Origin: a virus
Taxonomy: Duplodnaviria; Caudoviricetes
IMG/VR virus record: IMGVR_UViG_3300037067_018912
Coordinates: 160,001 to 224,000 of that record
DNA: 64,000 nucleotides
Reading direction: 5' to 3' (one strand)
The notes beneath the pieces are model-generated. The model was not told the origin of the DNA. It did not search any database and saw only the letters and a list, made by a program, of their open reading frames with translations. The position numbers were made by a program, and so were the translations under genes. Below, one piece after another: positions 2,907 through 64,000 of the stretch. Within the stretch, counting starts at the first letter, position 1, and the number at the start of each line of letters is the position of its first letter.

Positions 2907-2935
2907 ATCAGATCACCCCGGATTTAAAAGGGTTT

Positions 2936-3988: not shown

Positions 3989-5133
3989 TCCTCCGGTTTT
4001 TCCTCAACCTCCACTCTGCTAATAATTTCATCCTCAAATGAAATCTTACCGTTGGCATCGATGTTCTTCGTCGATAATGTAAGGTCTTCGGCGTTGATGC
4101 TGTCGTCCTCGAACAAATTACGGAAATAGAGTATGTTTTTCTTTTTGAAACCCTCAATATCATCAGGATACACAAAACCAAGCGGTGTGGATATGATCGT
4201 GCCCTGCATTGAAATACCACCCAATGGTCCGTCAATGTGATTCTTAGCAACACTAATCTTGGTTTCAATACCGTAACTCACAGTACGCTTCTTACTGTCA
4301 GCAGTGGCCGCCTTCGTTCCGTGGGTTATAATTCCACCCATATGGAAAATCAATCTTGCGCCGAGATTCCATGTCTCACCACCTTTGTGTTTCACAACAC
4401 CCTTGTTCATATTGTCGATCCAGATTTTCTGTGTTGCGACAACGGTATTGGTGTGTGGCTTATTAATCTTCCTGCTGCTTGGAATCGTATTGTTCAAAAG
4501 GTACATGAATGCTTTCTCATATGCCCCGGCGTTCCACATATTGTTTTGTACATCATCTTTTTCTTGTGCATTGATGGTCTTGATGCAGTTCAACGTGCCG
4601 ATCGAATCAATAGCAAACAACAAATCCACATCAAGCAAACCTGCGGCCTGTTTGTCAAGATAATAATAGAAGCATTTCGCCAAATCCTCAATTGACGCCT
4701 CTTTTCTGTCCTTATCCTGCAACTTCCCGAATTTGTCAAGAATGAAATCGTTGTCAATATAAATATAATTGTCGAAATCGAACCCCAATTCTTTCAAACG
4801 ATAGTTTCCCCGTCTTAAATTGTTTTCAGTGTCGATGAGAATTGGAACGATCCCCATCCTCTGCGCCGACACAAGAGCCTCGCAGATTGCAGTAGATTTT
4901 CCTGTGTTTGTATGACCCCGAACTTGATTGACATAACCTTTGGCGAATCCCGGTAATCCGGTCGCCCTTCTCACACCCGGAGACATTTCTATCCATTCCA
5001 ACGGTTTGTCGGGAATGTTTTCAATACCTTCCTTCTTCTTAAAATCGTCCAATGAAAAAGTCTTTTTTGCTGTAGGTTTCCTTACCACAGGATTATTGGC
5101 AGGTACTTCCTTTTCAGTCACTATTTTCGCCAT
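3985..5133 (-). CDS. uvsX: RecA/UvsX-like recombinase
   Basis: Walker A GHTNTGKST, LIDTE, AIDSIG, KGG, KNH; lies between SSB and exonuclease. Confidence 0.85.
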   Translation of the reverse strand: MAKIVTEKEVPANNPVVRKPTAKKTFSLDDFKKKEGIENIPDKPLEWIEMSPGVRRATGLPGFAKGYVNQVRGHTNTGKSTAICEALVSAQRMGIVPILIDTENNLRRGNYRLKELGFDFDNYIYIDNDFILDKFGKLQDKDRKEASIEDLAKCFYYYLDKQAAGLLDVDLLFAIDSIGTLNCIKTINAQEKDDVQNNMWNAGAYEKAFMYLLNNTIPSSRKINKPHTNTVVATQKIWIDNMNKGVVKHKGGETWNLGARLIFHMGGIITHGTKAATADSKKRTVSYGIETKISVAKNHIDGPLGGISMQGTIISTPLGFVYPDDIEGFKKKNILYFRNLFEDDSINAEDLTLSTKNIDANGKISFEDEIISRVEVEEKPEE

Positions 5134-7990: not shown

Positions 7991-8019
7991 TTTAATTTTA
8001 TTATAAATACCTCCATATC

Positions 8020-10538: not shown

Positions 10539-10991
10539 TTATTCGAAAATTATTGGGTTATTTTTACCGTATTCCCTCATAAACACCCCGGCAAGCGCAT
10601 TTGCTTCATTTTCCACATCGCTCCCCGTTTTGTTCGAACCGGAATCCAACCTTCCGTCTTTTCCTTGTTTATAATGTATACTTTCATGCCCGGTCGTCCG
10701 CAACACGTCTGCAAGATTCCTGTTCACCGCTACAACTCTCAATTCGTTGGTTTCTGGAGTATATTTGCCGAACGACGCCATACTTGCAGCCTCTTCAGGA
10801 TCGTATGAAAGGACTACATTAGGCACGTCCTGTCCCAAACCGAGTTTTTCTGCAATGAATTTCATAAAATCGGCAACGATCTCCTCTTTTTTCTCCTTCG
10901 GCAACACCTGTTCCACAAGAACAACCTTGTTAACCTTCTGAAACATCTCAAGAAGCCGTTCTTTTGAGCCGTATGGGTGGAACGCTTTCAC
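10539..10991 (-). CDS. Zincin-like metallopeptidase (HExxH) with shared N-terminal leader
   Basis: GHESIHYKQ plus downstream ENEANALAG; leader KERLLEMFQKVN; GTG start. Confidence 0.65.
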   Translation of the reverse strand: MKAFHPYGSKERLLEMFQKVNKVVLVEQVLPKEKKEEIVADFMKFIAEKLGLGQDVPNVVLSYDPEEAASMASFGKYTPETNELRVVAVNRNLADVLRTTGHESIHYKQGKDGRLDSGSNKTGSDVENEANALAGVFMREYGKNNPIIFE

Positions 10992-10993
10992 AA

Positions 10994-11716
10994 TTAAACC
11001 ATGTCGTTAAAACTGTCTTGAACATCCATCTTCGATTTCTGTGGAAGATCGTCGAAATCAGCAACAAACGTGCCGTCCGGCAATTGATTTATCCCCTTTT
11101 CATTATTCGCACTTCTCTGTTGATTGAACCAATTGTCCGACCATAAGTCATTCAGATTGAAGTAATAAGGGTATGAGACCTTAGTCTTGTTCATCAATTT
11201 TTCGGAATTGGTTGGTTCACGAACTTCTTCCACATCAGCGTTCAGAGTGTCAATTTTGCTGTTCAATTGATTGACCGTGCTGCTCAACATTTCCAATTCA
11301 TCGTGAATGCTCTTCATCGCCTCGATGTTGTGTTTAATAATGTCGTTTTGAACGTCATCCACTTCCGGTGCGGGTTCTGTTGGAGGCATTCCCATAGATG
11401 GGTCGTCCATTCCACCCGGAGGTGGCATGGTTTCACCACCCGCTTTATCAAATGCGGGTGTCGGGGGTGCTCCCGGAGCGTCAGCATTCATTGGTTGGTC
11501 ATTCGTCGGTGCAGGAGGCATCTCGCCTCCACCCGGCTTTTCAGCGTCCTCTTGTTCACCCGCCTCGTTTGTCAACACAGGTGCTTGATCAAAGATTTCG
11601 CTGTCGCCAACCAACGGGCGGTAACGTGGCGTCTCACTTATCTGATAGCCAATACGGTGTTTTATCTTCCTGATATGTTCTTCAAGAAGGATATTCCCCT
11701 TTTCATTTTTTTCCAT
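10994..11716 (-). CDS. Putative prohead core/internal protein (Pro-rich linker and coiled coil)
   Basis: LEEHIRKIKHRIGY N-terminus, LTNE site, Pro/Gly-rich linker, heptad region. Confidence 0.55.
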   Translation of the reverse strand: MEKNEKGNILLEEHIRKIKHRIGYQISETPRYRPLVGDSEIFDQAPVLTNEAGEQEDAEKPGGGEMPPAPTNDQPMNADAPGAPPTPAFDKAGGETMPPPGGMDDPSMGMPPTEPAPEVDDVQNDIIKHNIEAMKSIHDELEMLSSTVNQLNSKIDTLNADVEEVREPTNSEKLMNKTKVSYPYYFNLNDLWSDNWFNQQRSANNEKGINQLPDGTFVADFDDLPQKSKMDVQDSFNDMV

Positions 11717-12595: not shown

Positions 12596-13028
12596 TCGCC
12601 TTGTATAATTTCAACACCCTTTCAATAATACCCGTCGTCGAACACCAATCTGTAGGATAATAAATCACACCATTCTTGGCAAATTCAGCACCGACAATAA
12701 CCTTATCTTTGTAATGATCTCCAACAACGATATGGTCAATTTCAAACTTTTCAATGAAGTATTTCATTTCTTCATCGTCGTGAAAAACCACCACACTATC
12801 AACCATCTTGAGGTTGCACATAACCTTCATCCTTGTGCCAATACCGTTTATCGGTCTCTTGTCGCCCTTGAGCATCCGAACTCTTTCATCGCCATCCAAT
12901 CCGACGAACAGTTTGTTCTTGTTTAAATACAGCGGAATTGAATTATTTTCGTATAATTTTGCATACCAAAGGAGGTTTATATGCCCTTCGTGCAAAAGAT
13001 CGAAACAACCGCTGACCCAAATGTTCAT
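12570..13028 (-). CDS. Nucleotidyltransferase, HldE C-terminal (HldC/RfaE domain II)-like
   Basis: GCFDLLHEGH (HxGH), KGDKRPIN, VVGDHY, C-terminal STT. Start moved to MNIWVSG at 13028. Confidence 0.8.
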   Translation of the reverse strand: MNIWVSGCFDLLHEGHINLLWYAKLYENNSIPLYLNKNKLFVGLDGDERVRMLKGDKRPINGIGTRMKVMCNLKMVDSVVVFHDDEEMKYFIEKFEIDHIVVGDHYKDKVIVGAEFAKNGVIYYPTDWCSTTGIIERVLKLYKANENCKCRT

Positions 13029-13807
13029 AATCCCACCTTTTTCGTATCGATAACAACTACACCCTTTTGAGTAACCACCCATGCGGCACATTTATTAGCA
13101 AAACGTATTGCTTCACAAATATCGGAATTTTCGAGATATTTTGCAACAAGTGCCGCTAAAAACGTGTCGCCCGCACCGGACAAGTCCCTAACGTCATGCT
13201 CCTCCAAAATTGGAAAAGATTCGTTCTTTATTTCCCCGTCGTCATCATAATATCTCGTCGCTCCCAACCTACCTTCCGTTACAATAAGATCACCCGGATA
13301 ATGATCAATTAAATAACCCTCATTTTGAAGAAACTCCTTTTGATTGATCTTTATGTGTGTAATATAATCACACCACCCATATATCCGTTTTTTTGAATCC
13401 ATAAATGTCAATGAATGGTTATTGGAAATATAAACAATATCCTCTATACTCAAGAACCCCTTGTTGTAATCCGAGATGACAATTGCGTCATAATCGTTCA
13501 AATCCAACTTGTCAAGGTCTTCTCTTTTCATAGGGAAGATGCTGTCTTTTTGATCCACCCGCAAAAGCATTTGGTTGGAGACCTCGTCCACATACCTTGT
13601 TTTGACTGGTCTCAGATCGTTGGTTAGAATATCACATTGGACGCCCAATGCCTTGAGATTTTCATAGACATTGATTGCCATGCCGCCGTTACCAACAGTT
13701 TTCAGTGGGTTAAATATCGGCACAGGTGCTTCCGGGCACAACCTGGAACAATTACCGTAGATGAACATGTCCAAACAACTGTCACCGATCACTAAAACTT
13801 TTTTCAT
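13025..13807 (-). CDS. PfkB-family sugar kinase, HldE N-terminal (HldA/RfaE domain I)-like
   Basis: VIGDSCLD, RLCPEAPVP, ISDYNKG, DLSGAGDTF. Confidence 0.85.
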   Translation of the reverse strand: MKKVLVIGDSCLDMFIYGNCSRLCPEAPVPIFNPLKTVGNGGMAINVYENLKALGVQCDILTNDLRPVKTRYVDEVSNQMLLRVDQKDSIFPMKREDLDKLDLNDYDAIVISDYNKGFLSIEDIVYISNNHSLTFMDSKKRIYGWCDYITHIKINQKEFLQNEGYLIDHYPGDLIVTEGRLGATRYYDDDGEIKNESFPILEEHDVRDLSGAGDTFLAALVAKYLENSDICEAIRFANKCAAWVVTQKGVVVIDTKKVGL

Positions 13808-13810
13808 GTC

Positions 13811-15385
13811 TTAGACCTTTCCTGTGTTATATTTTGTATGATAATATATGATTGCATCCTTCTGCATCTCACGAATTTTTTCTTCACCATATATGCTCTT
13901 GAATGTTGTTCTATGATGATGCGGGATAATCAAATCTTGCACTAATGCCATTGTATAGCCATTATCGAGAAGACGATGACAGTAATCATCATCATCTCCA
14001 AGACCTACACCAAAACTCTCATCGAGAAGTCCAACCTTATCAAAAACCTCCTTCTTAAACATTGCACAAAAAAATGCAAACATCCCCCCGCTTCTAACAA
14101 CATAACCCTTTTGACCTTTCGGATATTTTCCCTGCCAACTATTTGGGGTTGTTGTCAACGGACCCGATAAGCCAATATTTTCATTTTGAATCAATGGTTC
14201 TGATAATTTTTCAAGCCAAGAATCCACCGCCTCAGTATCATTATTCATCAACACTATAAACTTGGCATTACTTGCCGATATCCCCATGTTTGTCGCTTTC
14301 ACGAATCCAAGATTTTCCTTGTTCCTGATAAGTATATGGGGCATGTCTTTCAACACTTTCCGAATTTTATTAAGTTCAGATTTCTCTGATCCATTATCAA
14401 CAAAAACAATTCTATAATTTTCAGAATGTTCCTTGATGCTTAGTAGACAATTAATTACATATTCCGACATATTCCACGATGGTATTACAATATCGTACAA
14501 AGTCTCTGTAATCAAATCATCTCGTCTTCCCAAACCGTTGGCTTTCTTCCGCTGAACCGCAGTCAACGGTTCGTCGATGTGTGTTATTTTCTTGAAATAA
14601 TTATACAAAAATGTTATCACCCGGAAATCACCCAAAGCATATCCTTCCCATTCCGGTTTAATTACCGAATTGAAGCAGAAACATAATGTAGAAATATCAT
14701 AAAGGACTGGTTTACCTAAGAAATTTTCATCTGAAGGTATAATTCTTCCTTTCGGAAATTGCGAACGGTATATTATCAAATCATTCCCATTTTCAATCTC
14801 TTTTGAAATTTTTAACAACGCATCTCTGTCGTTCAACTTGTCATCGTCATCAAGATACATTATATAACCATTCTTTACATATTTATGTAACTCATTAAGA
14901 TATAAATTATATTTAGCGGGTGCACCATATCTTAAATCACCACTTTTCTGCTCAATTTTGACGTCATTAAAATCGTACCTTACTATCGAACATTTATATT
15001 TTTTTACATATTCAAGACTTTCATCGTCATCAACTCCAACGATAATATTGTAATTCTTGTACGTCTGCTCAAACACGGATTCGATACAATTTTTGAAATA
15101 ATTCGGCCTGGCGGAAGTTCTTATTAAAATGTTAATCAACGGTTTCTTCAAACTATTTTTTAGAAGCACAGACCTGTTTTGATCATCCCCTTTTTCAATA
15201 ACAACCGCTTTTTCGTGTGGCTTGATTTCGGTTTTAACTGGCTCAATAACTCTTTGCTTGGGTTCTACCCACGACGGTATATTCCTCGTACTATCACCCT
15301 TTTTCTTGATGAAAACGAGGTTCTTGCGCTTCTCTTCCCTTCTCCTCTTTATTACCGCTTTAATATCGGGACGATCTCTTCTCAT
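13811..15385 (-). CDS. Tandem two-domain GT2 (GT-A) glycosyltransferase with basic N-terminal leader
   Basis: YLDDDD in domain 1; VDNGS, NLGFVKATN, MNNDT, GDDDDYC in domain 2. Confidence 0.85.
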   Translation of the reverse strand: MRRDRPDIKAVIKRRREEKRKNLVFIKKKGDSTRNIPSWVEPKQRVIEPVKTEIKPHEKAVVIEKGDDQNRSVLLKNSLKKPLINILIRTSARPNYFKNCIESVFEQTYKNYNIIVGVDDDESLEYVKKYKCSIVRYDFNDVKIEQKSGDLRYGAPAKYNLYLNELHKYVKNGYIMYLDDDDKLNDRDALLKISKEIENGNDLIIYRSQFPKGRIIPSDENFLGKPVLYDISTLCFCFNSVIKPEWEGYALGDFRVITFLYNYFKKITHIDEPLTAVQRKKANGLGRRDDLITETLYDIVIPSWNMSEYVINCLLSIKEHSENYRIVFVDNGSEKSELNKIRKVLKDMPHILIRNKENLGFVKATNMGISASNAKFIVLMNNDTEAVDSWLEKLSEPLIQNENIGLSGPLTTTPNSWQGKYPKGQKGYVVRSGGMFAFFCAMFKKEVFDKVGLLDESFGVGLGDDDDYCHRLLDNGYTMALVQDLIIPHHHRTTFKSIYGEEKIREMQKDAIIYYHTKYNTGKV

Positions 15386-15386
15386 T

Positions 15387-16172
15387 TTATTTATCGTAGA
15401 ACTCCTTTAACTCAATTAATTGATCTTTTATTATTGGTGTCTCAAAATCGGGTTCAAGCATTTTGTTCAACGGTTTCTCCATCTCAAATTTATTAATTAT
15501 ATTAGGTTTTGAATAAACTTCTCCAATAATTTTCAATAAATCGTATTTGCTCAACCCCAATGAACCAACTTGGGTTAATATGAATGCCCCTTTCCAATCT
15601 GAAATAATCACCTCTGCAACCTTACACCACTGCAATGTCGTAATACCATTCCAAAAATAATTGGAATACCCCTTCAAAACTTCATCGTCGTCAGTGCCGA
15701 GAAACCAATCCAATAAAGACAGACTCGTAATCAATTCGTGCCCAATAATTGATGTCCTGATGATCTTGGTGTTCTTAAACTCATCAACAATTAATTTCGA
15801 TATCTCCGCTTTACTTTTACCATAGTCGTCTTCTGCATCCCTCCAATCATTCCATTTATACGTCTTCGGATATGCAAGATAACCCGAAAACTCACAGTCA
15901 GTTGATGGATGAACCACCTTCTTGCCTGTCGTTTCCAAGAATTTTGGTAATTCGACGTTCAAAAATTTATAATATTCGGTGTTGTATTTCTTTTGGGGTA
16001 TAGCACCCACGCAATTCACAATGAATTCGGCATCTGAATTCAGAATTCTGTTCTTATATTCGTCAGAGTCCCATCTTGAACCCTCTATCGTTTCAATATC
16101 GCACTTATTGGTGAAATATTTGTGGACTGCGTTTCCAAGCATTCCGTAGTGACCCAATACCAATAATTTCAT
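15387..16172 (-). CDS. RmlD-like NDP-4-keto-6-deoxysugar reductase (QnlA/WbvR-like)
   Basis: GHYGMLG Rossmann motif, STDCEF, YGKSK, RTSIIG. Confidence 0.8.
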   Translation of the reverse strand: MKLLVLGHYGMLGNAVHKYFTNKCDIETIEGSRWDSDEYKNRILNSDAEFIVNCVGAIPQKKYNTEYYKFLNVELPKFLETTGKKVVHPSTDCEFSGYLAYPKTYKWNDWRDAEDDYGKSKAEISKLIVDEFKNTKIIRTSIIGHELITSLSLLDWFLGTDDDEVLKGYSNYFWNGITTLQWCKVAEVIISDWKGAFILTQVGSLGLSKYDLLKIIGEVYSKPNIINKFEMEKPLNKMLEPDFETPIIKDQLIELKEFYDK

Positions 16173-16194
16173 GTAACATGTTATTTAATACCTA

Positions 16195-17193
16195 TTATTT
16201 TTCGTTTTTCAAAAAACCGCCTTTGTACAACAATTCGTGGAGAAACTCTTTCCCTTTCAAATTATCAGCAGATGAAAACGTTATAAAATCAACCTCTTCG
16301 CAATTACTTAAATGTGAATAGTCCTTATTCATTTTTATTGAAGGCAATATCACATAATAATTTTCATCAAATTTATATGTATTAACCGATTCATGCTCCG
16401 ATACAAGTACTTCATGTATCTTCTCACCTTCTCTGATGCCAATCTCCTCGATCACGGTATTTTCATTACCATAAACATCAATTAGGACTTCCGCCAAATC
16501 CTTGATGTGAAACGACGGCATGTTCATAACGAACGTCTCCCCCCCGACGCTGTTCTCCGCCGCCTCGAAAAGTAAAGATATTGCTTCCGATAACGTCAGG
16601 AAAAACCTGGTCATTGTGCTATCGGTGATGGTCACCTTGTTCTGTGTTTTTATTTGATTAATGAAATGAGGAACAACACTACCATTCGAACCCAACACAT
16701 TACCACCCCTGATGCAAACAAAATCAGTATCATTGGTCAAATTATTGGCTTGTATTGTCAATTTCTCCCCAACGGATTTCGTCATTCCGTACAGATTTGT
16801 AGGAGAGACCGCCTTATCCGTAGATACGTCGATGAATTTTCTCACTTTGTATTTCATCGCCGAATTTATCAGGTTGATCGTGCCGCCAATGTTCGTCTTT
16901 ATCGCTTCCTGCGGCTGGTTTTCACACACCGGAACGTGCTTCAAGGCAGCAAGATGGAAAACATAATCAATACCACGTTGGAACAACCTGTCTACTGCAT
17001 CAGCATCCCTAACGTCTCCAATCACATATTCAATCCTCGAATCGTTAAACTTCCTCTGCATGTTCACTTGTGCGAGTTCCCCACGGGAAAAGACTATTAT
17101 TTTTCGAGGATTCTTTTCCAATAACTGCATGGTTAGTTCATTACCCCACGAACCAGAACCCCCATCAATCAATATTATTTTATCCTTAAACAT
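16195..17193 (-). CDS. UDP-GlcNAc 4,6-dehydratase (FnlA/CapE/WbjB-like)
   Basis: GGSGSWG, GDVRD, HLAALKHVP, STDKAV, YGMTK, GNVLGSNGSVVP, MTRF, GEKIHE. Confidence 0.85.
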   Translation of the reverse strand: MFKDKIILIDGGSGSWGNELTMQLLEKNPRKIIVFSRGELAQVNMQRKFNDSRIEYVIGDVRDADAVDRLFQRGIDYVFHLAALKHVPVCENQPQEAIKTNIGGTINLINSAMKYKVRKFIDVSTDKAVSPTNLYGMTKSVGEKLTIQANNLTNDTDFVCIRGGNVLGSNGSVVPHFINQIKTQNKVTITDSTMTRFFLTLSEAISLLFEAAENSVGGETFVMNMPSFHIKDLAEVLIDVYGNENTVIEEIGIREGEKIHEVLVSEHESVNTYKFDENYYVILPSIKMNKDYSHLSNCEEVDFITFSSADNLKGKEFLHELLYKGGFLKNEK

Positions 17194-17208
17194 AACGGCA
17201 TTTATTTA

Positions 17209-17967
17209 TTAGATTTTTTTTAATCTTTCACCACAATTCAAATGATATATAATTGAATCATTTGAAGTAATGTGCTCCACACCCATCAAACTTAATTTAC
17301 TAAAGAATTCAGTATCACCCGTTTTCTTTATTATATCATATTTACCACCATGTAAATTTCCTTCGGGATAATATCCTGCCATTTCTATCGTATATTTGTA
17401 CAACATTACTGGCATAAAAGCATTTCCAATTGAAACCGTATCTGTTCTTAACTCTTCAACCTTTTTAAGAAACGCATTTTCATCGAAACCGTTTATTGTT
17501 GAACCAAACGGACATATTTCACAAAACGACCCGTTTATCGGATTTCTAAATGGTGTTGGTTGTATTATCCTCGACGAAACTACTGTGGTATACGTCAATC
17601 TTTTTTTTAAATTACTTAACCAATTAGAAGAAAAACAATGATCACTATTAATCAACATTATTATTGGATTTTCGGACATCTTGATTCCGTAATTATATCC
17701 CGCATACACCCGATTTATATACTCCGGATATGCAAATCCCATATTAAATAACTCTTGTTCAGTATAACGCTTATTGTTGTTGACAAAATGTGGATAATTT
17801 CTCTCTTTTAAAAAATTCAACACTTCTTCGGTGGCATCATTGGCAATAAAATAAAACTCCGCCTCTCCATTATGAAGTTCCGGCGTATATTTCATAAGAT
17901 TATTATACAGAAATTCAGCAAATTCTGTCGATTGGTATATCAATGATATGATTGATACCTTCTCCAT
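17209..17967 (-). CDS. GT-A glycosyltransferase
   Basis: VSIISLIY start, YNYGI, INSDH, GDTEFF, IYH. Confidence 0.7.
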   Translation of the reverse strand: MEKVSIISLIYQSTEFAEFLYNNLMKYTPELHNGEAEFYFIANDATEEVLNFLKERNYPHFVNNNKRYTEQELFNMGFAYPEYINRVYAGYNYGIKMSENPIIMLINSDHCFSSNWLSNLKKRLTYTTVVSSRIIQPTPFRNPINGSFCEICPFGSTINGFDENAFLKKVEELRTDTVSIGNAFMPVMLYKYTIEMAGYYPEGNLHGGKYDIIKKTGDTEFFSKLSLMGVEHITSNDSIIYHLNCGERLKKI

Positions 17968-17969
17968 TC

Positions 17970-18602
17970 CTACTTTTTTTTTATTGCAACGAACACCTTA
18001 CCTATAAGGAAAATTTCATAACCTAACTTCTTATAAACCTCCGGATTTAATCCTATTTTGTGTTCCTCATTTGAATTACCCGATTTACGCACATGAAATG
18101 TATTATCATGATATCCAACCGGACCACCCAAAACAGCATATTTCGTAAACGTCTTTTCAATATTCTCCAATACTTTGTCGTGTTCCTCTTGGGTTAGATG
18201 CTCCAAAACGTGGTGACAAATTACCACATCATATTTTTCATTAAAATCATATTTCGTAATATCGACTTGTTCATAAACCCCTTTAGGTCCAAATTCATTT
18301 CTCCAATCAATATTTGGTTTGAATATATCCAATCCTTTAATTTCCTTATCGCCGAATATATTCAACAATATATCCTGCACCTTATAATCAAATTTAGAAT
18401 CAAGAAAAGAACCACACCCCAAATCCAATACAGTACGCACCTGAGAAAGGTTCATTCCTCGTCTTAGAATTTTCATCACATCTAAATTAGTCACCGTTTG
18501 TTGATTAATGTTTGATGTGGGTTTCATCCCTTTTGGCGTCAAAATCTCCTTAGTGGGACTATAATTCTTACCATATGCTCTTATTTTATCCCCGTCTTTC
18601 AT
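17970..18602 (-). CDS. Class I SAM-dependent methyltransferase
   Basis: VLDLGCG, YDVVICHHVLEHL. Confidence 0.85.
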   Translation of the reverse strand: MKDGDKIRAYGKNYSPTKEILTPKGMKPTSNINQQTVTNLDVMKILRRGMNLSQVRTVLDLGCGSFLDSKFDYKVQDILLNIFGDKEIKGLDIFKPNIDWRNEFGPKGVYEQVDITKYDFNEKYDVVICHHVLEHLTQEEHDKVLENIEKTFTKYAVLGGPVGYHDNTFHVRKSGNSNEEHKIGLNPEVYKKLGYEIFLIGKVFVAIKKK

Positions 18603-18606
18603 TTCT

Positions 18607-19440
18607 TTATTTGCTGTTTACATAATCCTCCCACAACTTCTTGCCTGCAATTCTGTCCCACTTGTGTTCAAAAATCGCATCCCTTGGGTTGTCACCTACC
18701 TCGAAATCCTTTTCAATGTTGACGATTTTTCTCTGTTTGAGATTACACGACATTCCCTCGTACTCGACGATATAATACGGTCTTAATAGGCTTGCAGACA
18801 ACTGAAAATCAGCCAAGTTCATTAATTCAGCCATTTTTTGTTGGTTCACCAAGACGTGCTGTTGGCAATATCCAATAAAACTACCTTGCGACGGATACCA
18901 CACAATGATCCAATAAATATTCGGATTCTCGTTTGCATATTTTTGAAAATTCTGTATACCTTTCATTGGATGCATTGTCCCGCACCAAAATCCAACTTCT
19001 TTATCCAACGGCACATTGTATTTCAATTTCAATTTATATTTCTCCTCGTCAGAATATGGTTTGAATAGGTCGGTGTTCACACCGATAGGCAGGATGTCGA
19101 CCTTACCAAACTGTTCATAAAACGGTATGGAGAATTTTGATGCGACTGTGATCCTATCAGAATGTTTGGCAGTTTCATATGTTTTTTGAATGAAACCGTC
19201 CCATTGATTTCCACCCAAAACTTTTTTCATTTCAGGATACAACTCCCAACACAACGCAATAACATTTGCGGGTTTAGCATTTAACGCCCCACATGTTGAA
19301 TATCTCAACACAACGTCATCATCATTATATTTCGGCGGAAGACTGAAAGATATGTTGTTGAAATTTCTTTCAAACCATACCCAAAAAGTCTCTTCCCCAT
19401 ATGCGCATTTCAGTCCATTGACTGGTGATAAGTATATCAT
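18607..19440 (-). CDS. GT-B (GT4-like) glycosyltransferase
   Basis: ILPIGVNTDLFKP, HPMKG, MAELMNLAD, EYEGMSCN. Confidence 0.75.
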   Translation of the reverse strand: MIYLSPVNGLKCAYGEETFWVWFERNFNNISFSLPPKYNDDDVVLRYSTCGALNAKPANVIALCWELYPEMKKVLGGNQWDGFIQKTYETAKHSDRITVASKFSIPFYEQFGKVDILPIGVNTDLFKPYSDEEKYKLKLKYNVPLDKEVGFWCGTMHPMKGIQNFQKYANENPNIYWIIVWYPSQGSFIGYCQQHVLVNQQKMAELMNLADFQLSASLLRPYYIVEYEGMSCNLKQRKIVNIEKDFEVGDNPRDAIFEHKWDRIAGKKLWEDYVNSK

Positions 19441-19976
19441 TTCTTTAAAAATTTAAGTACCCTTCTATCATTTTTCCTCGTTACAATTGTTATTCCGGCA
19501 ACCCCGACGGGAAGTGTGATATAATTCAACTCCGGATGTGTTTCATCCAACCATTCGTGAATTTTATAAGAATCGCCACAAAAGTATTGATCGACATATT
19601 TTTCCTCATAAGGATCGGTGTCGTGTAAAAAGATGATGCCGTGCTCGTTCAAACATTTCAATGAATTCTCGAAATCCTTTTTCACTTGTTCAAAATGATG
19701 ATCAGCATCTATAAAAACAACATCCACTCTTTCAGTGAAATTTTGGAAAAATCCATCAGTGGTCGTCTTATGAAACTCAAAATCTTTAAACAGCAAGTTG
19801 TCGTTGACATCAACACCGATGCACCTTCTACAAAACCTCCTGACCTCCCTGATGTTCAATCCTTGCAACACCCCCAATTCCAAATATGTTTCACACCCAG
19901 TCACTTCCACGATTTTTGAAATGAGTGTGGGGTGCAACTCGAACTTTGAATAAATATATGCAAACCTGTCTGTCAT
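19437..19976 (-). CDS. SAM-dependent methyltransferase (Methyltransf_24-like)
   Basis: YLELGV, VFIDADH, DFENSL, GIIFLHD. Confidence 0.8.
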   Translation of the reverse strand: MTDRFAYIYSKFELHPTLISKIVEVTGCETYLELGVLQGLNIREVRRFCRRCIGVDVNDNLLFKDFEFHKTTTDGFFQNFTERVDVVFIDADHHFEQVKKDFENSLKCLNEHGIIFLHDTDPYEEKYVDQYFCGDSYKIHEWLDETHPELNYITLPVGVAGITIVTRKNDRRVLKFLKK

Positions 19977-21079
19977 ACCTTTCCCAATAATATATTAATC
20001 ACCGTATCCGACACATTACAAACCTGATAATCATCAGGAACACTCCAAATATTGCTTCTTTTCATTGTTGTATTGAATGCTTCAACAATATTCCAAGTCT
20101 TCGTGCCACACAATACATTCGATCCGCATTCGATGGTCTCCTGCCTCTCAGTGCTCTCTCTTATCGTCAAAGCCGGAACACCTAAAATGCAACACTCCTC
20201 CTGCACTGTCCCACTGTCCGTGATGACACATCTCGCTGATCTCTCTAAACTTATAAAATCAAAAAAACCGAGAGGTTGTGAAACCGTCACCTTGTCACCC
20301 AATTTTAAACTAAATAGTTCTATTTTACTTTTCGTCCTTGGGTGCAAGGAAACCACAACCTCAATGTTATTTGAAATCAAATTCAATGCATCAACAATGT
20401 TTCTTAAAACATCAACATCATCAACATTCTCACAACGATGTGCGGTTACAAGAACAAAATCTTTGATTTTTTTTGTTTTTATGTCCTGCAATCCCCATTC
20501 GAATAACATTATACTATCATCGATCTGTGGCTTGTATTTGTTCATCACTTCGTAAATCGGATTACCCGTCTTGAACACAAAATTCTTATGAAAACCTTCA
20601 TTCAAGAGATTCTGTTTACTGTTCTCAGTGTACGGAAGGTTATATTTCGACACAGAATCGATTATTTTTCTGTTTGTCTCCTCTGGCAGCCTACTGTCGT
20701 AACACCGATTTCCCGCTTCCATATGATACACAGGGATTTTATGTTTTTCGGCCACGATCGACAACAACCCCGAATTGGTATCGCCCAAAACCAATATCTT
20801 ATTAGGTTTTTCGAATAATAAAATATTTTCAAATTCAATAACTGCATTACCGAAAAATTCACCAAACGTCCCACCTCCCCTTTTAAAATAATAATCGGGT
20901 TTTCTTATCTTCAAGTCTTGAAAGAATTTCGTACTTAAATTATAATCATAATTCTGATTAGTATATACCAAGACGTGGTCAACCAATGCATCCAATTTTT
21001 CGATTATGATACTCAACCTAATCAACTCAGGTCTCGTCCCGGTTATTGTAAGCACTTTCATTGTTTTATTATATATCAT
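19973..21079 (-). CDS. Non-hydrolysing UDP-N-acetylhexosamine 2-epimerase (FnlC/QnlB/WecB family)
   Basis: GTRPELIRL, LGDTNS, HMEAGNR, PEETNR, TDSGTVQEE, TERQE. Confidence 0.9.
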   Translation of the reverse strand: MIYNKTMKVLTITGTRPELIRLSIIIEKLDALVDHVLVYTNQNYDYNLSTKFFQDLKIRKPDYYFKRGGGTFGEFFGNAVIEFENILLFEKPNKILVLGDTNSGLLSIVAEKHKIPVYHMEAGNRCYDSRLPEETNRKIIDSVSKYNLPYTENSKQNLLNEGFHKNFVFKTGNPIYEVMNKYKPQIDDSIMLFEWGLQDIKTKKIKDFVLVTAHRCENVDDVDVLRNIVDALNLISNNIEVVVSLHPRTKSKIELFSLKLGDKVTVSQPLGFFDFISLERSARCVITDSGTVQEECCILGVPALTIRESTERQETIECGSNVLCGTKTWNIVEAFNTTMKRSNIWSVPDDYQVCNVSDTVINILLGKV

Positions 21080-21884
21080 TCTTTATCACCAAGTTATTTT
21101 CTGCGTAAATCTTATTCTCTTTTGAAGTTACATTGAAAAATAACTGCTTATTCCTCTCATGCAACGCATGTGCATTTGGAATTTGATAACTGACCCCTGT
21201 ATGATATTGATGAAGTGCGGTTAATTCATCAATTATTTTTATATTCATCTTGTTTCTTCCAATCCTGGTGATAAAATCATTATCGTCGTATGCCACTCCT
21301 TTTGCGAATCTTTCATCAAACCCATTCAGTCCGTCGAGTTTCTTCTTATGCATCGCAGAGCAGAAATGATATGCCACTGGCCTGTATCTTGTATGATTAT
21401 ACCAACCCGGAATTCCTTCCTGACGGAACACAGACTCCACATAAGGCAAAACCACTTTCTTACATTCTTCAATTATGTTATTGTAATTCAAACCATTCAT
21501 TGCATCAGTCTGTGCCTTTGTCAAAGCATATACAGAAAATGAAAAATAATCATTCTCCCTTAAATTGTCTTTCACATACGACAACACATCCCCAAAATGA
21601 AAACATTCCGGATTTTGAATTACAACAATCTCCCCGGCGGCTTTCTTAAAACCAATATTAAATGGAATACATGGATTTACATACCACCTATCCGCTTTTT
21701 CCAAACGAACCACTTGAAGAAAAGGAAATTCATTTATCAAATCCTCGATCCTTTGATTCTCTGAACTACAATCATCAACAGCAATTACCTCAAAATCTTT
21801 AAAATTCGATAATGAAATGGATTTCAATGTTCTCCTGAACAAATCCTTCCTGTTAAAATATGCTGTTACAATTGAAATTTTCAT
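21069..21884 (-). CDS. GT2 glycosyltransferase
   Basis: ISIVTAYFNR, VDDCS, GFDERF, YDDNDF, HQYH. Confidence 0.85.
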   Translation of the reverse strand: MKISIVTAYFNRKDLFRRTLKSISLSNFKDFEVIAVDDCSSENQRIEDLINEFPFLQVVRLEKADRWYVNPCIPFNIGFKKAAGEIVVIQNPECFHFGDVLSYVKDNLRENDYFSFSVYALTKAQTDAMNGLNYNNIIEECKKVVLPYVESVFRQEGIPGWYNHTRYRPVAYHFCSAMHKKKLDGLNGFDERFAKGVAYDDNDFITRIGRNKMNIKIIDELTALHQYHTGVSYQIPNAHALHERNKQLFFNVTSKENKIYAENNLVIKNDI

Positions 21885-22906
21885 TCGTCAATAAAATTGA
21901 TGGTTTTCATATCGCTATCTTTAGGATCAATGTTGTTGACACCCCCGTGCATTTTCGATTCGTTCAAGCCTATGTTTTTCACATACGAAAATGGTGTCCT
22001 GTATATCATACAACCCATCACATTTATCTTCGTGGTCATTTGTTGCCACACCCCGGCACTAATGTTCTTATTATGTTGCCACCTCGATTTATCGATTGCA
22101 TCTATCTTATAATCAATCAATTTAATAAACTCAATGTCATACAACCCACCTCCATCAACCCACTGCTTATATCCCCAAACAAAAACATTGTCATTCAAGT
22201 AGTCCTTCTTATAATGATGATAGGAAACACACAACACTTTGTTATTCTCCGTCTTCACCCGATAGTACTCAGTCATCAACCTGTCAAGGAAATCCTTACA
22301 AAGCATGAAATCATCATCAATTTGAAGGATCGAATTGGTGGAATATTTCCTCACTTCCTCAAGACCTTTCGTAATTGTCCGCCAATACCCCCCTTTACCA
22401 TAATTTTCCTCGTTCTTGAGATGAACCAATTCTGGAAATATTGTTGTTAAAGCATCATATCTCTCGTCAGACGAATAATCATCAACCAAAACAACCTTGA
22501 ACTTATATTCTGTCTTCTGCCTGTATAATTGTACCAATAATTCATACACCATATCGAACCTGTCATACGAAGTCACCATTACCACGGTGTCGTAATCAAC
22601 ATTCATGTTCCTCTCGTATGGTTTTGTAAATAGTTTGGCAACCGCTTCCCATAACCTATAATATTTTGGAAGTATGACTCCACTCCGCCTTTCCTCACGT
22701 GTCATCGGCCTATTCCCATCATCAACAATCCGGTACATCTGTTCATTAGCCACCACCGGAGGTTTACCACCACTTCCCAAAACCCTTTTCCAATCCCTCT
22801 TATTCATTGATCCAGTTTCTTTAAACACCAATTCCTGCCGCTTGTTACGATTAATCTCGATTCTTTTTTTTATCGCTTTCTTTATGTCGACACCCCTTCG
22901 TTTCAT
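21881..22906 (-). CDS. GT2 glycosyltransferase with basic N-terminal leader
   Basis: TSYDR, VDDYS, NYGK, QIDDD. Confidence 0.75.
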   Translation of the reverse strand: MKRRGVDIKKAIKKRIEINRNKRQELVFKETGSMNKRDWKRVLGSGGKPPVVANEQMYRIVDDGNRPMTREERRSGVILPKYYRLWEAVAKLFTKPYERNMNVDYDTVVMVTSYDRFDMVYELLVQLYRQKTEYKFKVVLVDDYSSDERYDALTTIFPELVHLKNEENYGKGGYWRTITKGLEEVRKYSTNSILQIDDDFMLCKDFLDRLMTEYYRVKTENNKVLCVSYHHYKKDYLNDNVFVWGYKQWVDGGGLYDIEFIKLIDYKIDAIDKSRWQHNKNISAGVWQQMTTKINVMGCMIYRTPFSYVKNIGLNESKMHGGVNNIDPKDSDMKTINFIDE

Positions 22907-22907
22907 A

Positions 22908-23594
22908 TTAATAATTCAACACAGTGTAATTGATATTCTTACGTTCTCTGAAATACTTCGGAAACTTCTTGTATTGAATCGTATCATGCTCGACCGTAAT
23001 ATTTTCTATCTTTTTTAAGAAGAATCCGTTCTCCCTCATCCTCTTATTTAATTCAAAATCCCAATACACATTCGAAGTTGGGTCTTCCACCCAAAAATTT
23101 ATCTTGTCTACGACACTCCTCCTTTGCATATTGACACACGTCACCATACGGGCGTCCCCGAAGATAACCCCATTGTGTTCCTGTTTATTTATTATATCGA
23201 TCACCGTACCCACACCAATTCTCTTGAGCATCAACTGCCCGATTATTGGGAACACATCCATTATCTCCACCATTTTAGCAAGGAAATCTTGTGTCATTGG
23301 AGTACAATCGTTGTCCCATTGCATAGTATAGATACAATCCTCGTCAAGATTCTCATATCCAAGTTTTGTACCACCAAAATCGCCGAGATTCACATCAGAA
23401 AACAACGGTTTGATCTTGTAATACCCTTCAATCTCTAAAGATTTTAACCACTGTCTTGTACCATCACTGCTTGCGTTGTCTATAACGATCAATTTATAAT
23501 CGTCATATCCTGCCAAACGATCGATCTCCCTAATAGTATGAACCGTATATTCCAAACGATTGAACGCTCTTATTATGATATTTACCTTTGCCAT
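22908..23594 (-). CDS. GT2 glycosyltransferase
   Basis: FNRLEYT, IDNASSDGT, NLG, WDND. Confidence 0.85.
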   Translation of the reverse strand: MAKVNIIIRAFNRLEYTVHTIREIDRLAGYDDYKLIVIDNASSDGTRQWLKSLEIEGYYKIKPLFSDVNLGDFGGTKLGYENLDEDCIYTMQWDNDCTPMTQDFLAKMVEIMDVFPIIGQLMLKRIGVGTVIDIINKQEHNGVIFGDARMVTCVNMQRRSVVDKINFWVEDPTSNVYWDFELNKRMRENGFFLKKIENITVEHDTIQYKKFPKYFRERKNINYTVLNY

Positions 23595-23628
23595 ATGATT
23601 TTACCTTAAATACTTACCCGTCTTCTTT

Positions 23629-24306
23629 TTATGCGAATTTTATTGTATTCATCAAGTCAGTCTGAACCTTATCGTTGAACTTGAACTCATCAAAGATTGT
23701 TTTCTCCCCGACCTCGGCTTGATATGTTAAATAATTCGATTTGTGTTCAAGGCAAACAATTCTTATACCCTTTTCATTAGCAAATTTTGCCAACCAAATG
23801 TCTGCCATATTAGGGTGCTTGATGTCCTTATGTGAAAATTTTAAGAGATTGGTGTGAAACATGGCAACCCCGCTCCCGCCGAGATGAACAAAAACGTCCT
23901 TATCAACATTCCCCAAACAATGATAATTGTAATGCGGCGATCTGTAATATGATGCAACCGGATATCCTGTGAATGACCTTCCATGTAAGGACACAATATA
24001 TTGACCACCATATAAATGAAATTTGGCAATCATATATTCTGCATAATTGGGAGGATAAACGAGATCGTCGTCGATGGTAAAGTAATATCCGTCAGAATCT
24101 TCTAATTTCAAGAACTTGAAGCCATCCCCGATTGAATTATCGGTGATGAAACAATTTATTTTGGAATCATTTACAAACCTGTCGGGAATTCTATCATGGG
24201 AATTCAATGCAATATTGATCTCATCGGCCTGATTGTAAATTGAATCAATTGTTTTAAATAAACACTCATCCCTTTTGTAAGTGGCGACATTAAAAATCCT
24301 TTTCAT
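23629..24306 (-). CDS. GT-A glycosyltransferase
   Basis: ATYKR, GDGFKF, TIDDDLVYP, MADIW. Confidence 0.75.
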   Translation of the reverse strand: MKRIFNVATYKRDECLFKTIDSIYNQADEINIALNSHDRIPDRFVNDSKINCFITDNSIGDGFKFLKLEDSDGYYFTIDDDLVYPPNYAEYMIAKFHLYGGQYIVSLHGRSFTGYPVASYYRSPHYNYHCLGNVDKDVFVHLGGSGVAMFHTNLLKFSHKDIKHPNMADIWLAKFANEKGIRIVCLEHKSNYLTYQAEVGEKTIFDEFKFNDKVQTDLMNTIKFA

Positions 24307-29334: not shown

Positions 29335-29389
29335 TAATGAAGATTTTTAAATAAATACTTGCCGTTTCGTTTTATATTATGTAGTTTTA

Positions 29390-57962: not shown

Positions 57963-58520
57963 TTAACTCCCTTTAGTTTCACTTAAAAACGGTACGACAT
58001 CTTCTTTTACCGGGACTCCTGTGACCTTTTTCCAATAAGTTTTGAAACCACCAATGGTCTTCTTGGTTTCATCAGTAACGTTGTTGGCATTTTCGACCTC
58101 ATAGAACCTACTTTTCTGTCCACTCATGTTGTACTCGATGATATCTCCACGATCGACCTCAACACCCTTTTCCTCCAATTCCTTGAGATAAATCCCAAAG
58201 GTGATATTCCCGGTGTCGTCACGAACGATACCTCCTGGATTGCCTCCGTAGTTCTCCTGCTTGCCATCTTCGACGGTAACCATAACCTTGAGCCTGACTG
58301 GAGACATGAATTTCTTATCCTTAGTCTTCGTTTGACCATATAATTTATGCGCCGACCCGGCGGTTTCCAATATATTAATCTTGTGCAGGGTGATCTCCTG
58401 TGCATTGTCGGTTTCAAGATAGTTCCTACCGTACATCACATCAAGATCAAAGGAGTTGTTTGTCATAAACAAACCCATCCTATTCTCCTCAAGATCAATT
58501 ATTTGTTTCTTTTTCTTCAT
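57963..58520 (-). CDS. Neck/head-closure protein (T4 gp14-like)
   Basis: LYGQ, GNITFGIYLKELEE, RGDIIEY, FYEV. Confidence 0.6.
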   Translation of the reverse strand: MKKKKQIIDLEENRMGLFMTNNSFDLDVMYGRNYLETDNAQEITLHKINILETAGSAHKLYGQTKTKDKKFMSPVRLKVMVTVEDGKQENYGGNPGGIVRDDTGNITFGIYLKELEEKGVEVDRGDIIEYNMSGQKSRFYEVENANNVTDETKKTIGGFKTYWKKVTGVPVKEDVVPFLSETKGS

Positions 58521-58529: not shown

Positions 58530-58844
58530 TTATCTTTTTAAAATCACATCTTTGGAATCATATGCCATAGAATCCAATCCTTCTTCCGCTTTTGGTGTTG
58601 CACCGTCTTTTAAATAAACTTCCATAATTTCAGGTGTATCATTTTCGTCTTCCGCAATCATTTCAGCATATTCCAACGCTTCTGAATAATCATCTGTGAT
58701 GTTTACATTATGTTGTGGATAAAAACCAACCTTTCTTATATTATCTGCTCTACTTTTCGTAGTTCCATGAAAATACGTCTTATTAAAATTTGGATTAACT
58801 TTCTCCATCATTTCAAAAAGCCGTTGTCTATTACTTTTCTTCAT
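58530..58844 (-). CDS. Putative ADP-ribosyltransferase-fold protein with shared leader
   Basis: YFHGTT...IRKVGF...VNITDDYSEALEYA...IMEV; leader RQRLFEMMEKVN. Confidence 0.55.
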   Translation of the reverse strand: MKKSNRQRLFEMMEKVNPNFNKTYFHGTTKSRADNIRKVGFYPQHNVNITDDYSEALEYAEMIAEDENDTPEIMEVYLKDGATPKAEEGLDSMAYDSKDVILKR

Positions 58845-59152
58845 TAATAACTCGAATTTTTTGCTCGATTATATACATCAAGCATTTCCATATACGATAA
58901 ATCCATTAATTCATCATGAAATTCTTCAAAAAATTCTTTTTGCTGTTTCGATGAAAATTCATCTTGTTCAAGCGAATCCATCGTATCATCTGATTGATTA
59001 AATTCATAACTAAACCAATCAATCATTTCCTTTGTCGGTAATTCAGTACCTTTGTAACTAAACGACAGATTTGATTCGTTCAATTTTGGTGTAAACGAAT
59101 TATCAATTTTTTGCATGACTTCGAAAAGCCGTTGTCTATTATCTTTTTTCAT
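58844..59152 (-). CDS. Small acidic protein with shared leader
   Basis: Leader RQRLFEVMQKID followed by LNE|S site. Confidence 0.6.
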   Translation of the reverse strand: MKKDNRQRLFEVMQKIDNSFTPKLNESNLSFSYKGTELPTKEMIDWFSYEFNQSDDTMDSLEQDEFSSKQQKEFFEEFHDELMDLSYMEMLDVYNRAKNSSY

Positions 59153-59153: not shown

Positions 59154-60278
59154 TTAAATCGCTATTATTGGGAACATTGGGGGTTGATATCCACGTTCTC
59201 TATTGACGTTCTCTGCAATATCTGCACGTATTTTCGTCATGTTCTCTTGACTCAAATACATTAATTGATCGAGAATGATCTTCTCGGTGTCTTCCTTTAA
59301 TTTTGTCCCTTCATCGAGCAGGTGACGATAGTCCATTGTCAACTGTTTCTCAGTGACACCCAATTCCCCGGTGTAGAAGCCACGGATTCCACCGATGACC
59401 ATCTTCACCTTTGCAATAAGTAAGTTACGGATTTGTTGATGTGAGGAATCATTCATATTGTCCCATTTGAGGACTTTCAACGGGGCATCCGATGGTAATC
59501 TTACCACATCGTCATTTTCTTCAAGGCATTTATCTCTGTCTTTATTCGTGTTCATGGTGTCATAATACCAATACCACACTTTTCTGCCCGCATAATGTTT
59601 ACCCCAAACACCTTGTATCTCATCCCGGCTTCCAGGAACGGGGTATAAATGTAATATTTTTTCACCACTTGCCAACCCGGTGATGCGATATGTGAGTATA
59701 GACTGTAAAACTCTCTGTTTCATCCTTCTATCCTGTGCCGTCAAAAGGGTTGAATATGTCGGTTGCACATACATGGCGGGACGACCAAGATATGACCATC
59801 CGACCATACCGGGCGACCATGCATTCAATGCGAATGGGTCAACCAAACCACCGTCGATTTCAGGTGGGGTCTCCCACAAAACCTCATTAACTTCCCTGCC
59901 TGCAGGAATGATGTAATGCTGCGTATTGGCGGAAGTGACTATAAAATCACGTTTAAGTTCCCATCCGGGTGCAGCAGGAGCGTTCGTGCCCAAACCGACT
60001 TGTCGGGAATATGCGTATGTAAAAGCCTCCATATAATGGTTCGATTTGACAGTGAAAGCGGATAGAAAGTCGCTGTTTTCCTTGCTCAATCCCTCTATAC
60101 TGATCCACTGTTGTTGAATCAGCCAATTGTTGACAATCGAGGAATAATCCTCAATAACCATTTCAAAATAGGAATCCAACATCTCGTCCTTCAATTCGAA
60201 TGGTCTCAATGGAAACCCCAATTCATGTTTGACATGAAGGTACAGTTTATTTTTGTCAACTGTTGATATTAAGGCCAT
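59154..60278 (-). CDS. Neck protein (T4 gp13-like head-tail adaptor)
   Basis: ELGFPLRPFEL, LHLYPVP, IGGIRG, LTMDYRHLLDEG, C-terminal PPM; late motif upstream. Confidence 0.75.
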   Translation of the reverse strand: MALISTVDKNKLYLHVKHELGFPLRPFELKDEMLDSYFEMVIEDYSSIVNNWLIQQQWISIEGLSKENSDFLSAFTVKSNHYMEAFTYAYSRQVGLGTNAPAAPGWELKRDFIVTSANTQHYIIPAGREVNEVLWETPPEIDGGLVDPFALNAWSPGMVGWSYLGRPAMYVQPTYSTLLTAQDRRMKQRVLQSILTYRITGLASGEKILHLYPVPGSRDEIQGVWGKHYAGRKVWYWYYDTMNTNKDRDKCLEENDDVVRLPSDAPLKVLKWDNMNDSSHQQIRNLLIAKVKMVIGGIRGFYTGELGVTEKQLTMDYRHLLDEGTKLKEDTEKIILDQLMYLSQENMTKIRADIAENVNRERGYQPPMFPIIAI

Positions 60279-60293: not shown

Positions 60294-60328
60294 TTTACAA
60301 TAAATACTTTGAATAAAGTAAAATAACT

Positions 60329-63731: not shown

Positions 63732-64000
63732 TTACTGCAGGTCACCAATTCCGAAGGTCTGCAGACCGTCGCAGAAGATTCTTCCGTAGTAACGGTTGAG
63801 AACCATCTTCTTTGCGTACCTGGTCATGATACCACGGATCGGCGTGAAGTCGAACGGGTTGTACATAACCGGGGTCAACTGCATCGGAACGTAAGGAGCG
63901 TAGATGTAACCTGTTTCCAGGATCGATGTTCCCTTGTGTCCAACGAGGACGGTGTTTGCGGGTGCATACGGGTCACGGTATACCATGTAACGGCCACTCA
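63732..64000 (-). CDS. Major capsid protein, 3' end (T4 gp23-like); truncated by window edge
   Basis: VYRDPY, VGHKG, GYIYAPYVP, FTPIRGIMTRYA. Confidence 0.93.
   Translation of the reverse strand, partial: SGRYMVYRDPYAPANTVLVGHKGTSILETGYIYAPYVPMQLTPVMYNPFDFTPIRGIMTRYAKKMVLNRYYGRIFCDGLQTFGIGDLQ

Follow-up and report, generated by a model that had tools for sequence, protein, structure and literature searches.

A shared 26-residue N-terminal leader on unrelated proteins of an uncultured T4-like jumbo phage, a probable prohead-targeting propeptide

Why do proteins that otherwise have nothing in common begin with the same two dozen residues? The question is raised by a tandem pair of small minus-strand genes at positions 58530–59152 of a 64,000-nucleotide (nt) stretch of phage DNA (hereafter the window), which corresponds to bases 160001–224000 of a 357,275-bp virus record with direct terminal repeats (IMGVR_UViG_3300037067_018912). 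An initial annotation of the window had described one leader shared by this pair and two further genes, and had interpreted it as a targeting peptide by which unrelated payloads are loaded into the phage head. On the basis of profile searches, payload comparisons and structure models, we consider it probable (roughly 70%) that the common N-terminal segment directs proteins to the prohead as a propeptide, in the manner of the capsid-targeting sequence (CTS) of phage T4 but in a longer, two-part form of 26 residues.

All four minus-strand open reading frames (ORFs) were recovered with the N-termini originally reported, at 8071–10527 (818 residues), 10539–10991 (150 residues, GTG start), 58530–58844 (104 residues) and 58844–59152 (102 residues), together with the three L-x-E sites described in them (L-D-E|A, L-V-E|Q and L-N-E|S). 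The initial annotation had also proposed a profile scan of the genome and its relatives. A hidden Markov model (HMM) of the leaders was searched iteratively against the six-frame ORFs of the entire 357-kb genome and converged on 12 genes, not four, with E values of 1e-15 to 3e-8; the next match had an E value of 1.3, and the best match on reversed sequences one of 0.83. Each of the 12 matches begins at the initiator methionine. Four of these genes are located inside the window and the other eight outside it, at genome positions of approximately 243–253 kb, 260 kb and 330 kb. Of all 12 genes, 8 lie within about 25 kb of the head module. An [LI]-x-E tripeptide follows the leader core in 9 of the 12 genes, compared to 88 of 443 background genes (p = 6e-5). 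The leader helix is amphipathic and basic, with a hydrophobic moment reached by 12 of 2000 shuffled sequences.

Beyond this genome, a leader-only profile of 39 positions was searched against a library of 1.84 billion representative proteins, and 423 protein clusters were matched at E ≤ 1e-3. Among the best 150 clusters, the match started at residue 8 or earlier in 146, in proteins ranging in size from 31 to 586 residues. The consensus of the library leaders was M-K-K-D-S-K-Q-R-L-F-E-V-M-G-R-L-D-K-T-F-K-P-K-L-N-E, followed by complete divergence, and the leader can be written as the pattern M-K-K-x(3-5)-[KR]-x-R-L-F-E-[VM]-M-x-[KR]-[LV]-[DN]-x-x-F-K-x-K-L-N-E. Downstream of the core, [LI]-x-E was present in 131 of 144 library leaders (L-N-E in 115) and was located exactly 15 residues past the core glutamate in 90. 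Pfam searches of 129 library representatives returned almost no domains and no family spanning the leader, and a literature search for leader core strings yielded nothing relevant. Four of five related complete genomes carry tagged genes, from two to nine in each.

Seventeen library proteins contain a second, internal leader that lacks the methionine, with (M/I)-Y-E-(N/S) some eight residues upstream of it. One such copy (L121:135-1736, an ENA metagenome contig) was verified in frame and reads I-Y-E | N-K-N-S-K-S-K-Q-K-L-F-E-...-L-N-E | G. We interpret the internal leader as the tag kept as a putatively cleavable linker between two fused cargos, flanked by protease-type sites.

Once leaders had been masked, no BLASTP match was obtained among the 12 payloads at 1e-5, in agreement with the earlier description of the payloads as unrelated. 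Family matches, where any were found, all differ (GP88, DUF5661 and three different PHROGs). Two domains of one 238-residue tagged protein were found separately behind leaders elsewhere, which indicates domain recombination between phages. A first clustering of payloads had placed 93 members in one cluster, an artefact in which internal leaders and shuffled domains chained them together under single linkage; the cluster resolved after masking. Rather than a motif located away from N-termini or always fused to the same domains, we thus found a leader that is strictly N-terminal in this genome and payloads that are both unrelated and shuffled. These results bear directly on the proposal that the tagged proteins are diverged paralogues of one family, in which the leader is just the best-conserved N-terminal segment and not a transferable module. 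Two tandem pairs do look recently duplicated, and in related phages certain payload domains are shared between members; however, the payloads of the 12 genes share no similarity, the families assigned to tagged proteins are as different as GP88, DUF5661, three PHROGs, AAA_33, ART-PolyVal and the ADP-ribosyltransferase (ART) fold, one kinase and one H-E-x-x-H protein are each found both tagged and untagged, and leaders can differ on one and the same payload. Common descent of whole proteins is therefore very improbable.

A conserved N-terminus could also reflect selection on the nucleic acid, with the element acting as a recombination handle or a translation-initiation region and the peptide being functionless. 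The tandem pair had been noted to share 18 identical nucleotides (58816–58833 and 59124–59141), and the leader DNA had been suggested to serve as a recombination handle. The identity is indeed exact, lies inside both leaders and involves an 18-mer with no third copy in the genome; an identity of 21 nt is shared by two leaders separated by 41 kb, and conserved DNA elements are known to flank the internal-protein loci of T-even phages. Nucleotide similarity of the tandem pair ends after ~ 45 nt. Across all 66 leader pairs, however, identical residues were encoded by identical codons in 203 of 435 cases versus 186 expected from codon usage, and the arginine, leucine, phenylalanine and glutamate of the leader are each written with many different codons. 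Since codon identity is at expectation, i.e. synonymous sites are randomised, the constraint acts on the peptide. Only two tandem pairs exceeded expectation (11/12 and 9/11, the latter being the pair at 58530–59152, for which 5 were expected). Such an excess fits recent duplication or conversion, by which the 18-nt identity would be explained, and a general role of the leader DNA as a recombination handle was not supported. In-frame internal leaders without start codons, as well as amino-acid conservation across 423 clusters, point in the same direction and make a nucleic-acid element the least probable of the explanations considered here.

What, then, is the peptide for? The strongest evidence for a head-protease propeptide comes from the junctions in payload homologues, as judged from their alignments. 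The first cargo of the tandem pair (58844–59152, minus strand; leader HMM E = 1e-15) has its leader in residues 1–26 (nt 59075–59152), with L-F-E at residues 9–11 and L-N-E at residues 24–26. Eleven homologues of its payload carry N-terminal extensions of varied length and sequence, every one of which has [LI]-x-E as its last residues, in the same alignment column; two homologues begin immediately past this column. Homologues of the second cargo (58530–58844, minus strand; leader HMM E = 6e-15), whose own leader is truncated (residues 1 to ~ 22, nt 58779–58844) and includes L-F-E but no L-N-E, have either a long leader or a short one of the form M-x-x-I-x-x-x-L-N-E, and the L-N-E of the short leader aligns with the L-F-E of the long one. 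Because non-homologous leaders converge on [LI]-x-E at the junction, the junction is defined by the cleavage motif and not by the leader sequence. The propeptide would accordingly end in a gp21-type motif, (L/I)-x-E, at the predicted start of the mature protein. In an AlphaFold model of the 102-residue protein, the leader forms a helix (residues 6–16), followed by a disordered linker (residues 15–35) that holds L-N-E and by helices spanning residues 41–101. We also considered whether the leader mimics the propeptide of the capsid protein, as both contain L-F-E and then x-N-E; the leader HMM missed the capsid protein, and the likeness was dismissed as superficial.

The genome encodes the head machinery that is relevant to such a propeptide. 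A major capsid gene of the T4 Gp23 family reaches into the window with its 3′ end (63732–64000, minus strand; PF07068, E = 2.5e-64). The complete ORF occupies 223732–225423 of the genome, with a scaffold candidate and then a gp21-type protease beyond it, and its product matches T4 gp23 structures at E of about 1e-24. Five [LI]-x-E sites are present in the first 60 residues of the capsid protein, the next one occurs only at residue 312, and residue 64 aligns with residue 20 of mature T4 gp23. The prohead protease (Peptidase_S77; PF03420, E = 1.6e-19) is encoded ~ 3 kb past the capsid gene and aligns to the T4 gp21 structure in PDB entry 5JBL (E = 1.3e-10), with histidine and serine at two positions where the crystallised chain reads alanine; we take that chain to be an inactive His/Ser-to-Ala mutant of gp21. 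A T4-type portal gene is present in the same genome. Between the protease and capsid genes, a gene for a 548-residue acidic coiled-coil protein (genome 225443–227089, minus strand) encodes 3.8 [LI]-x-E sites per 100 residues versus a genome mean of 1.28, and by position and composition the protein is a candidate scaffold. It was also seen to evolve much faster than the capsid protein (identity among relatives of 42–95% versus 73–97%), while keeping a conserved N-terminus with I-I-K-E|A and a conserved C-terminal coiled coil.

The capsid protein was found at 73–97% identity on more than 147 IMG/VR contigs, many of them 320–365 kb long, and its nearest cultured counterparts, those of Flavobacterium phage immuto and Microcystis phage Mel-JY01, share only 31–33% identity with it. 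On account of this distribution of its capsid relatives, the source phage can be assigned to an uncultured clade of T4-like jumbo phages.

In T4, the internal proteins IPI, IPII and IPIII as well as Alt are loaded onto the scaffolding core by an N-terminal CTS of 10–19 residues, which gp21 removes at (L/I)-x-E (Mullaney & Black 1996; PMC3012670, PMC9026906). Targeting and processing determinants of the CTS are separable, and the tag packages foreign proteins (PMC3012670, PMC9026906); aspartate at the cleavage position stops processing and leaves targeting unaffected. The leader described here resembles the CTS in being an N-terminal propeptide on unrelated proteins that starts with M-K and ends with [LI]-x-E, in its co-occurrence with a homologous gp21-type protease, a gp23-type capsid protein and a portal, and in cargo genes that are polymorphic between relatives. 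It also shares with T4 an ART-fold cargo, Alt being a head-packaged ADP-ribosyltransferase. A comparison with T4 thus supports the initial proposal of a CTS-like targeting peptide on three counts: a T4-type capsid protein with its gp21-type protease, [LI]-x-E at a fixed spacing, and convergence at the junctions. We infer the following series of steps, from core binding through cleavage and packaging to injection. The basic amphipathic helix around L-F-E-V-M would dock the nascent protein on the scaffolding core during assembly of the shell. The gp21-type serine protease would then cut after the glutamate of L-F-E and/or L-N-E, and the mature payload would be freed inside the head, from where it could leave with the DNA at infection. 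Co-injection of the payloads with DNA is suggested by analogy with T4. In such a scheme, the acquisition or loss of about 26 codons would be enough to bring the product of an ORF into the head or to keep it out.

Several observations weigh against a T4-like propeptide. Most payloads are acidic, unlike the basic internal proteins of T4. The leader has no detectable homology to the T4 sequence M-K-T-Y-Q-E-F-I-A-E (the N-termini of T4 IPI, IPII, IPIII and Alt have in common with it only an initial M-K and a hydrophobic-x-E), and with ~ 26 residues and two candidate cut sites it is about twice as long as the 10–19 residues of T4. L-N-E belongs to the conserved motif itself, and its conservation alone is no proof of cleavage. 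The second [LI]-x-E site is absent from 3 of the 12 leader genes, that of the 104-residue protein included, and from several slot cargos, so that either L-F-E or L-N-E may be the site that is cut. One of the 12 members, the 818-residue protein, has aspartate in place of the core glutamate (L-L-D instead of L-F-E). One relative with 75% capsid-protein identity (G004) is entirely devoid of the leader. Finally, the leader was not found in any cultured phage, either among GenBank phage records or in the distant cultured relatives: tblastn with a natural 42-residue leader-only protein gave no match in 50,697 GenBank phage records, and the leader profile gave nothing at E ≤ 1 in Flavobacterium phage immuto, Microcystis phage Mel-JY01, two huge uncultured phages and the relative with 75% capsid identity.

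Alternatively, the leader could be an address or interaction tag for a target other than the capsid interior, such as a handle for the tail or baseplate, a chaperone-binding helix or a degron that times destruction, with [LI]-x-E being incidental or serving turnover by the same protease. An amphipathic helix could bind many partners, the tandem pair lies among virion genes that possibly belong to the neck and not to the head, and many of the payloads are acidic, unlike the DNA-binding internal proteins of T4. Convergence on [LI]-x-E at the junctions and the bracketed internal leaders nevertheless point to the head protease, an enzyme that in T4 is active inside the prohead, and the clustering of 8 of the 12 leader genes within ~ 25 kb of the head module is also at odds with a target elsewhere. 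We consider a non-capsid address unlikely, and a propeptide for prohead targeting remains the preferred explanation.

If the leader is a loading tag, are its cargos exchangeable? Within late operons, the tagged genes are located in hypervariable slots, among them the slot of the tandem pair at 58530–59152. This slot is bounded on its 5′ side by a gene for a 374-residue virion-module protein (59154–60278, minus strand; 58–89% identical in 56 related loci) and on its 3′ side by a gene for a 185-residue protein of unknown function (57963–58520, minus strand; 46–85% identical in 52 related loci). Comparison of 51 related loci holding both flanks showed the slot to be empty in 23 (flanks ≤ 43 nt apart), with the flanks 210–2442 nt apart in the remaining 28. 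Inserts consist of one or two genes; 13 of 23 non-redundant slot ORFs carry the leader, and at least 13 payload families are represented. Exchange of cassettes, as put forward in the initial annotation, is supported by this comparison, the slot being empty in 23 of 51 relatives and occupied elsewhere by at least 13 unrelated payload families. Among the cargos of relatives, an AAA_33 P-loop kinase is leader-tagged in six phages, preceded in three by an additional N-terminal domain, and is untagged in five others; a leader-tagged ART-PolyVal domain and an untagged papain-like protease were also found. One leaderless AAA_33 kinase in the slot (L045:16076-16561) starts with M-I-E-N-F-K-P-K-F. This start resembles a leader tail (x-F-K-P-K) lacking the core, and a deletion that removed most of the leader may have left it behind. 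As both the AAA_33 kinase and the H-E-x-x-H protein are found in tagged and untagged forms, ORFs could join the DNA-delivered set by acquiring about 26 codons and leave it on losing them. A clade-wide plug-and-play label of this sort, with the slots as cassette sites for exchangeable injected effectors, is offered tentatively, as a possibility about which we are more doubtful than confident.

Neither flank could be confirmed as a neck gene of the gp13-like or gp14-like type assigned to it originally. The 374-residue protein matched T4 gp13 with a BLASTP E value of 4.2 and an hhalign probability of 17% (54 C-terminal columns, shallow profiles), and had no Pfam, PHROG or NCBIfam match. It did match a 'putative head completion protein' of Flavobacterium phage immuto (E = 1e-8), and is best described as a head-completion or neck-adaptor candidate. 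The 185-residue protein showed no likeness to T4 gp14 (BLASTP E = 1.4; hhalign probability 0.2%, likewise with shallow profiles).

The octamer G-T-A-T-T-T-A-T, read directly from the sequence at 60300–60307 (minus strand), lies 21 nt upstream of the 374-residue gene and is promoter-like. Of its 102 copies in the genome, 52 have the start of a gene on the same strand no more than 60 nt downstream, where ~ 4 would be expected. Genes preceded by it at a distance of 17–58 nt include the portal gene, the gene for the scaffold candidate, five leader genes and many very large ORFs; further copies in the window are at 8003–8010, 29351–29358 and 32287–32294, all on the minus strand. Given this placement, the octamer is probably the late promoter of the clade, and also that of the operon with the tandem cargo pair. 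Its reverse complement forms part of the T4 late promoter word, yet the octamer itself lies on the coding strand.

With respect to the payloads themselves, that of the 102-residue protein is a small, acidic helical domain (isoelectric point 4.1, net charge −12), for which a protein-atlas search was uninformative, with neither a fold nor a function lead. The 104-residue protein had been described as ART-like, and at the level of fold this was borne out. Its model has a predicted local distance difference test score of 84.5, and residues 19–104 superpose on the NAD lobe of Tpt1/KptA (residues ~ 88–178; Z 8.0–8.6, root-mean-square deviation 3.4 Å over 80 residues). These Z scores are middling, but the match spans the whole domain and agrees across the fold family: lower-ranked matches, where named, were PARP, tankyrase, Arr, exotoxin A, diphtheria toxin and Tne2, all of the ART fold, and one was a protein of unknown function. 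The model thus supports a minimal ADP-ribosyltransferase-fold domain. No Pfam ART family was matched at E ≤ 0.1, and an hhalign comparison with the ART-PolyVal cargo of a relative aligned the leader and the first strand only. His26, Tyr42 and Glu75 are invariant in five homologues.

At the other locus in the window, the 150-residue protein (10539–10991, minus strand; leader HMM E = 6e-11) has a leader ending in L-V-E|Q and an H-E-S-I-H motif at residue 102, which appears as H-E-M-E-H in a distant homologue. It had been called an HExxH peptidase; the motif is present as described, while the match to a peptidase family remained below threshold (Peptidase_M78, E = 0.074, 13.3 bits against a cut-off of 22), and we regard the protein as a putative small zinc metallopeptidase. 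Leader-bearing orthologues were found in three relatives and a leaderless homologue at a different locus of G004, the genome that has no leaders at all. This homologue (131 residues; L119, G004:C1:51603-54914) adjoins a gene for a von Willebrand-like protein of 255 residues and apparent transfer RNA-like sequences, a context unlike that in the present genome.

The adjacent 818-residue protein (8071–10527, minus strand; leader HMM E = 3e-8) is very acidic (net charge −86), contains DUF5661 (PF18905, E = 1e-13) and 12 [LI]-x-E sites, and has leader-bearing orthologues in relatives. Its leader (10408–10527, minus strand) reads L-L-D at the first site and then R-L-D-E|A. Because aspartate at the T4 cleavage position blocks processing and not targeting, the protein may be cut solely at this second site. 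Directly upstream of the two leader genes, a 240-residue, proline-rich, acidic coiled-coil protein (10994–11716, minus strand), recognised by weak coiled-coil matches in Pfam and NCBIfam and by composition, may be a prohead-core or scaffold-like component. PHROGs gave no match for the four leader proteins of the window or their neighbours, and NCBIfam returned nothing useful.

Two further gene blocks were recognised on the minus strand of the window. A replication and recombination block at 83–5133 encodes a DnaB-like helicase (697 residues), a 5′–3′ exonuclease and a UvsX/RecA-like recombinase. A run of sugar-nucleotide and polysaccharide genes at 13025–24306 encodes a PfkB-like kinase, a family-2 glycosyltransferase, an RmlD-like reductase and a Polysacc_synt_2 epimerase/dehydratase, and may serve glycosylation of DNA, the virion or the host surface.

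How far does the arrangement differ from known ways of loading proteins into a capsid? At least 12 tagged genes per genome are found here as opposed to four in T4, and internal copies of the leader occur in polyprotein-like ORFs. In encapsulins, too, a short conserved peptide suffices to load unrelated cargo into an HK97-fold shell; those cargo-loading peptides are, however, usually C-terminal, bind the shell protein directly and stay uncleaved, and neither DNA nor injection is involved. T-even phages have more than 30 internal-protein variants at hypervariable loci, and CTS genes are exchanged there between conserved genes (Repoila et al. 1994; Comeau et al. 2007, both as cited in PMC2839356), much like the cargos here. 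The T-even loci are bounded by promoter and stem-loop DNA elements, whereas the slot studied here has a virion gene on either side, within a late operon, and no conserved DNA element was found there. In the phiKZ-like giants SPN3US, 201phi2-1 and phiKZ, a gp21-related protease likewise processes many inner-head proteins, whose propeptides have been inferred to target the prohead (PMC5694885, PMC7411985); these propeptides exceed 100 residues, have no single shared sequence and are cut at A/S/G-x-E, in contrast to the one short, conserved tag that is reused here. Polyvalent proteins of phages and conjugative elements (Iyer et al. 2017, PMC5512222) consist of arrays of conflict-type ART, kinase and metallopeptidase domains predicted to be delivered with DNA. 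An ART-PolyVal domain occupies the same slot in a relative of our phage, and some library proteins carry two cargos per chain; unlike polyvalent proteins, the cargos here are mostly separate small genes, each with its own tag, and processing would be carried out by the head protease and not by an embedded metallopeptidase.

The principle of CTS-directed head loading is already established in T4, and what is new here is a probable two-part, 26-residue variant with a dozen genes per genome. Only for a few model phages is it known which proteins enter the host together with the DNA. If the tag marks head-loaded proteins, a single 26-residue profile would list probable injected proteins across a clade of 320–365-kb phages, and more than 400 cargo families, nearly all of them without a known domain, would become readable from metagenomes with one small profile. 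Among the cargos listed in this way are an ART fold, an ART-PolyVal domain, P-loop kinases and small acidic proteins with a possible role in countering host defences. The data also offer a view of how such a tag evolves, with the same payload carrying different leaders, the same payload occurring with and without a leader, and adjacent cargos fusing into polyproteins in which the tag would serve as a cleavable linker. Lastly, the leader might be used, as the T4 CTS has been, as a portable signal that directs foreign proteins into large capsids.

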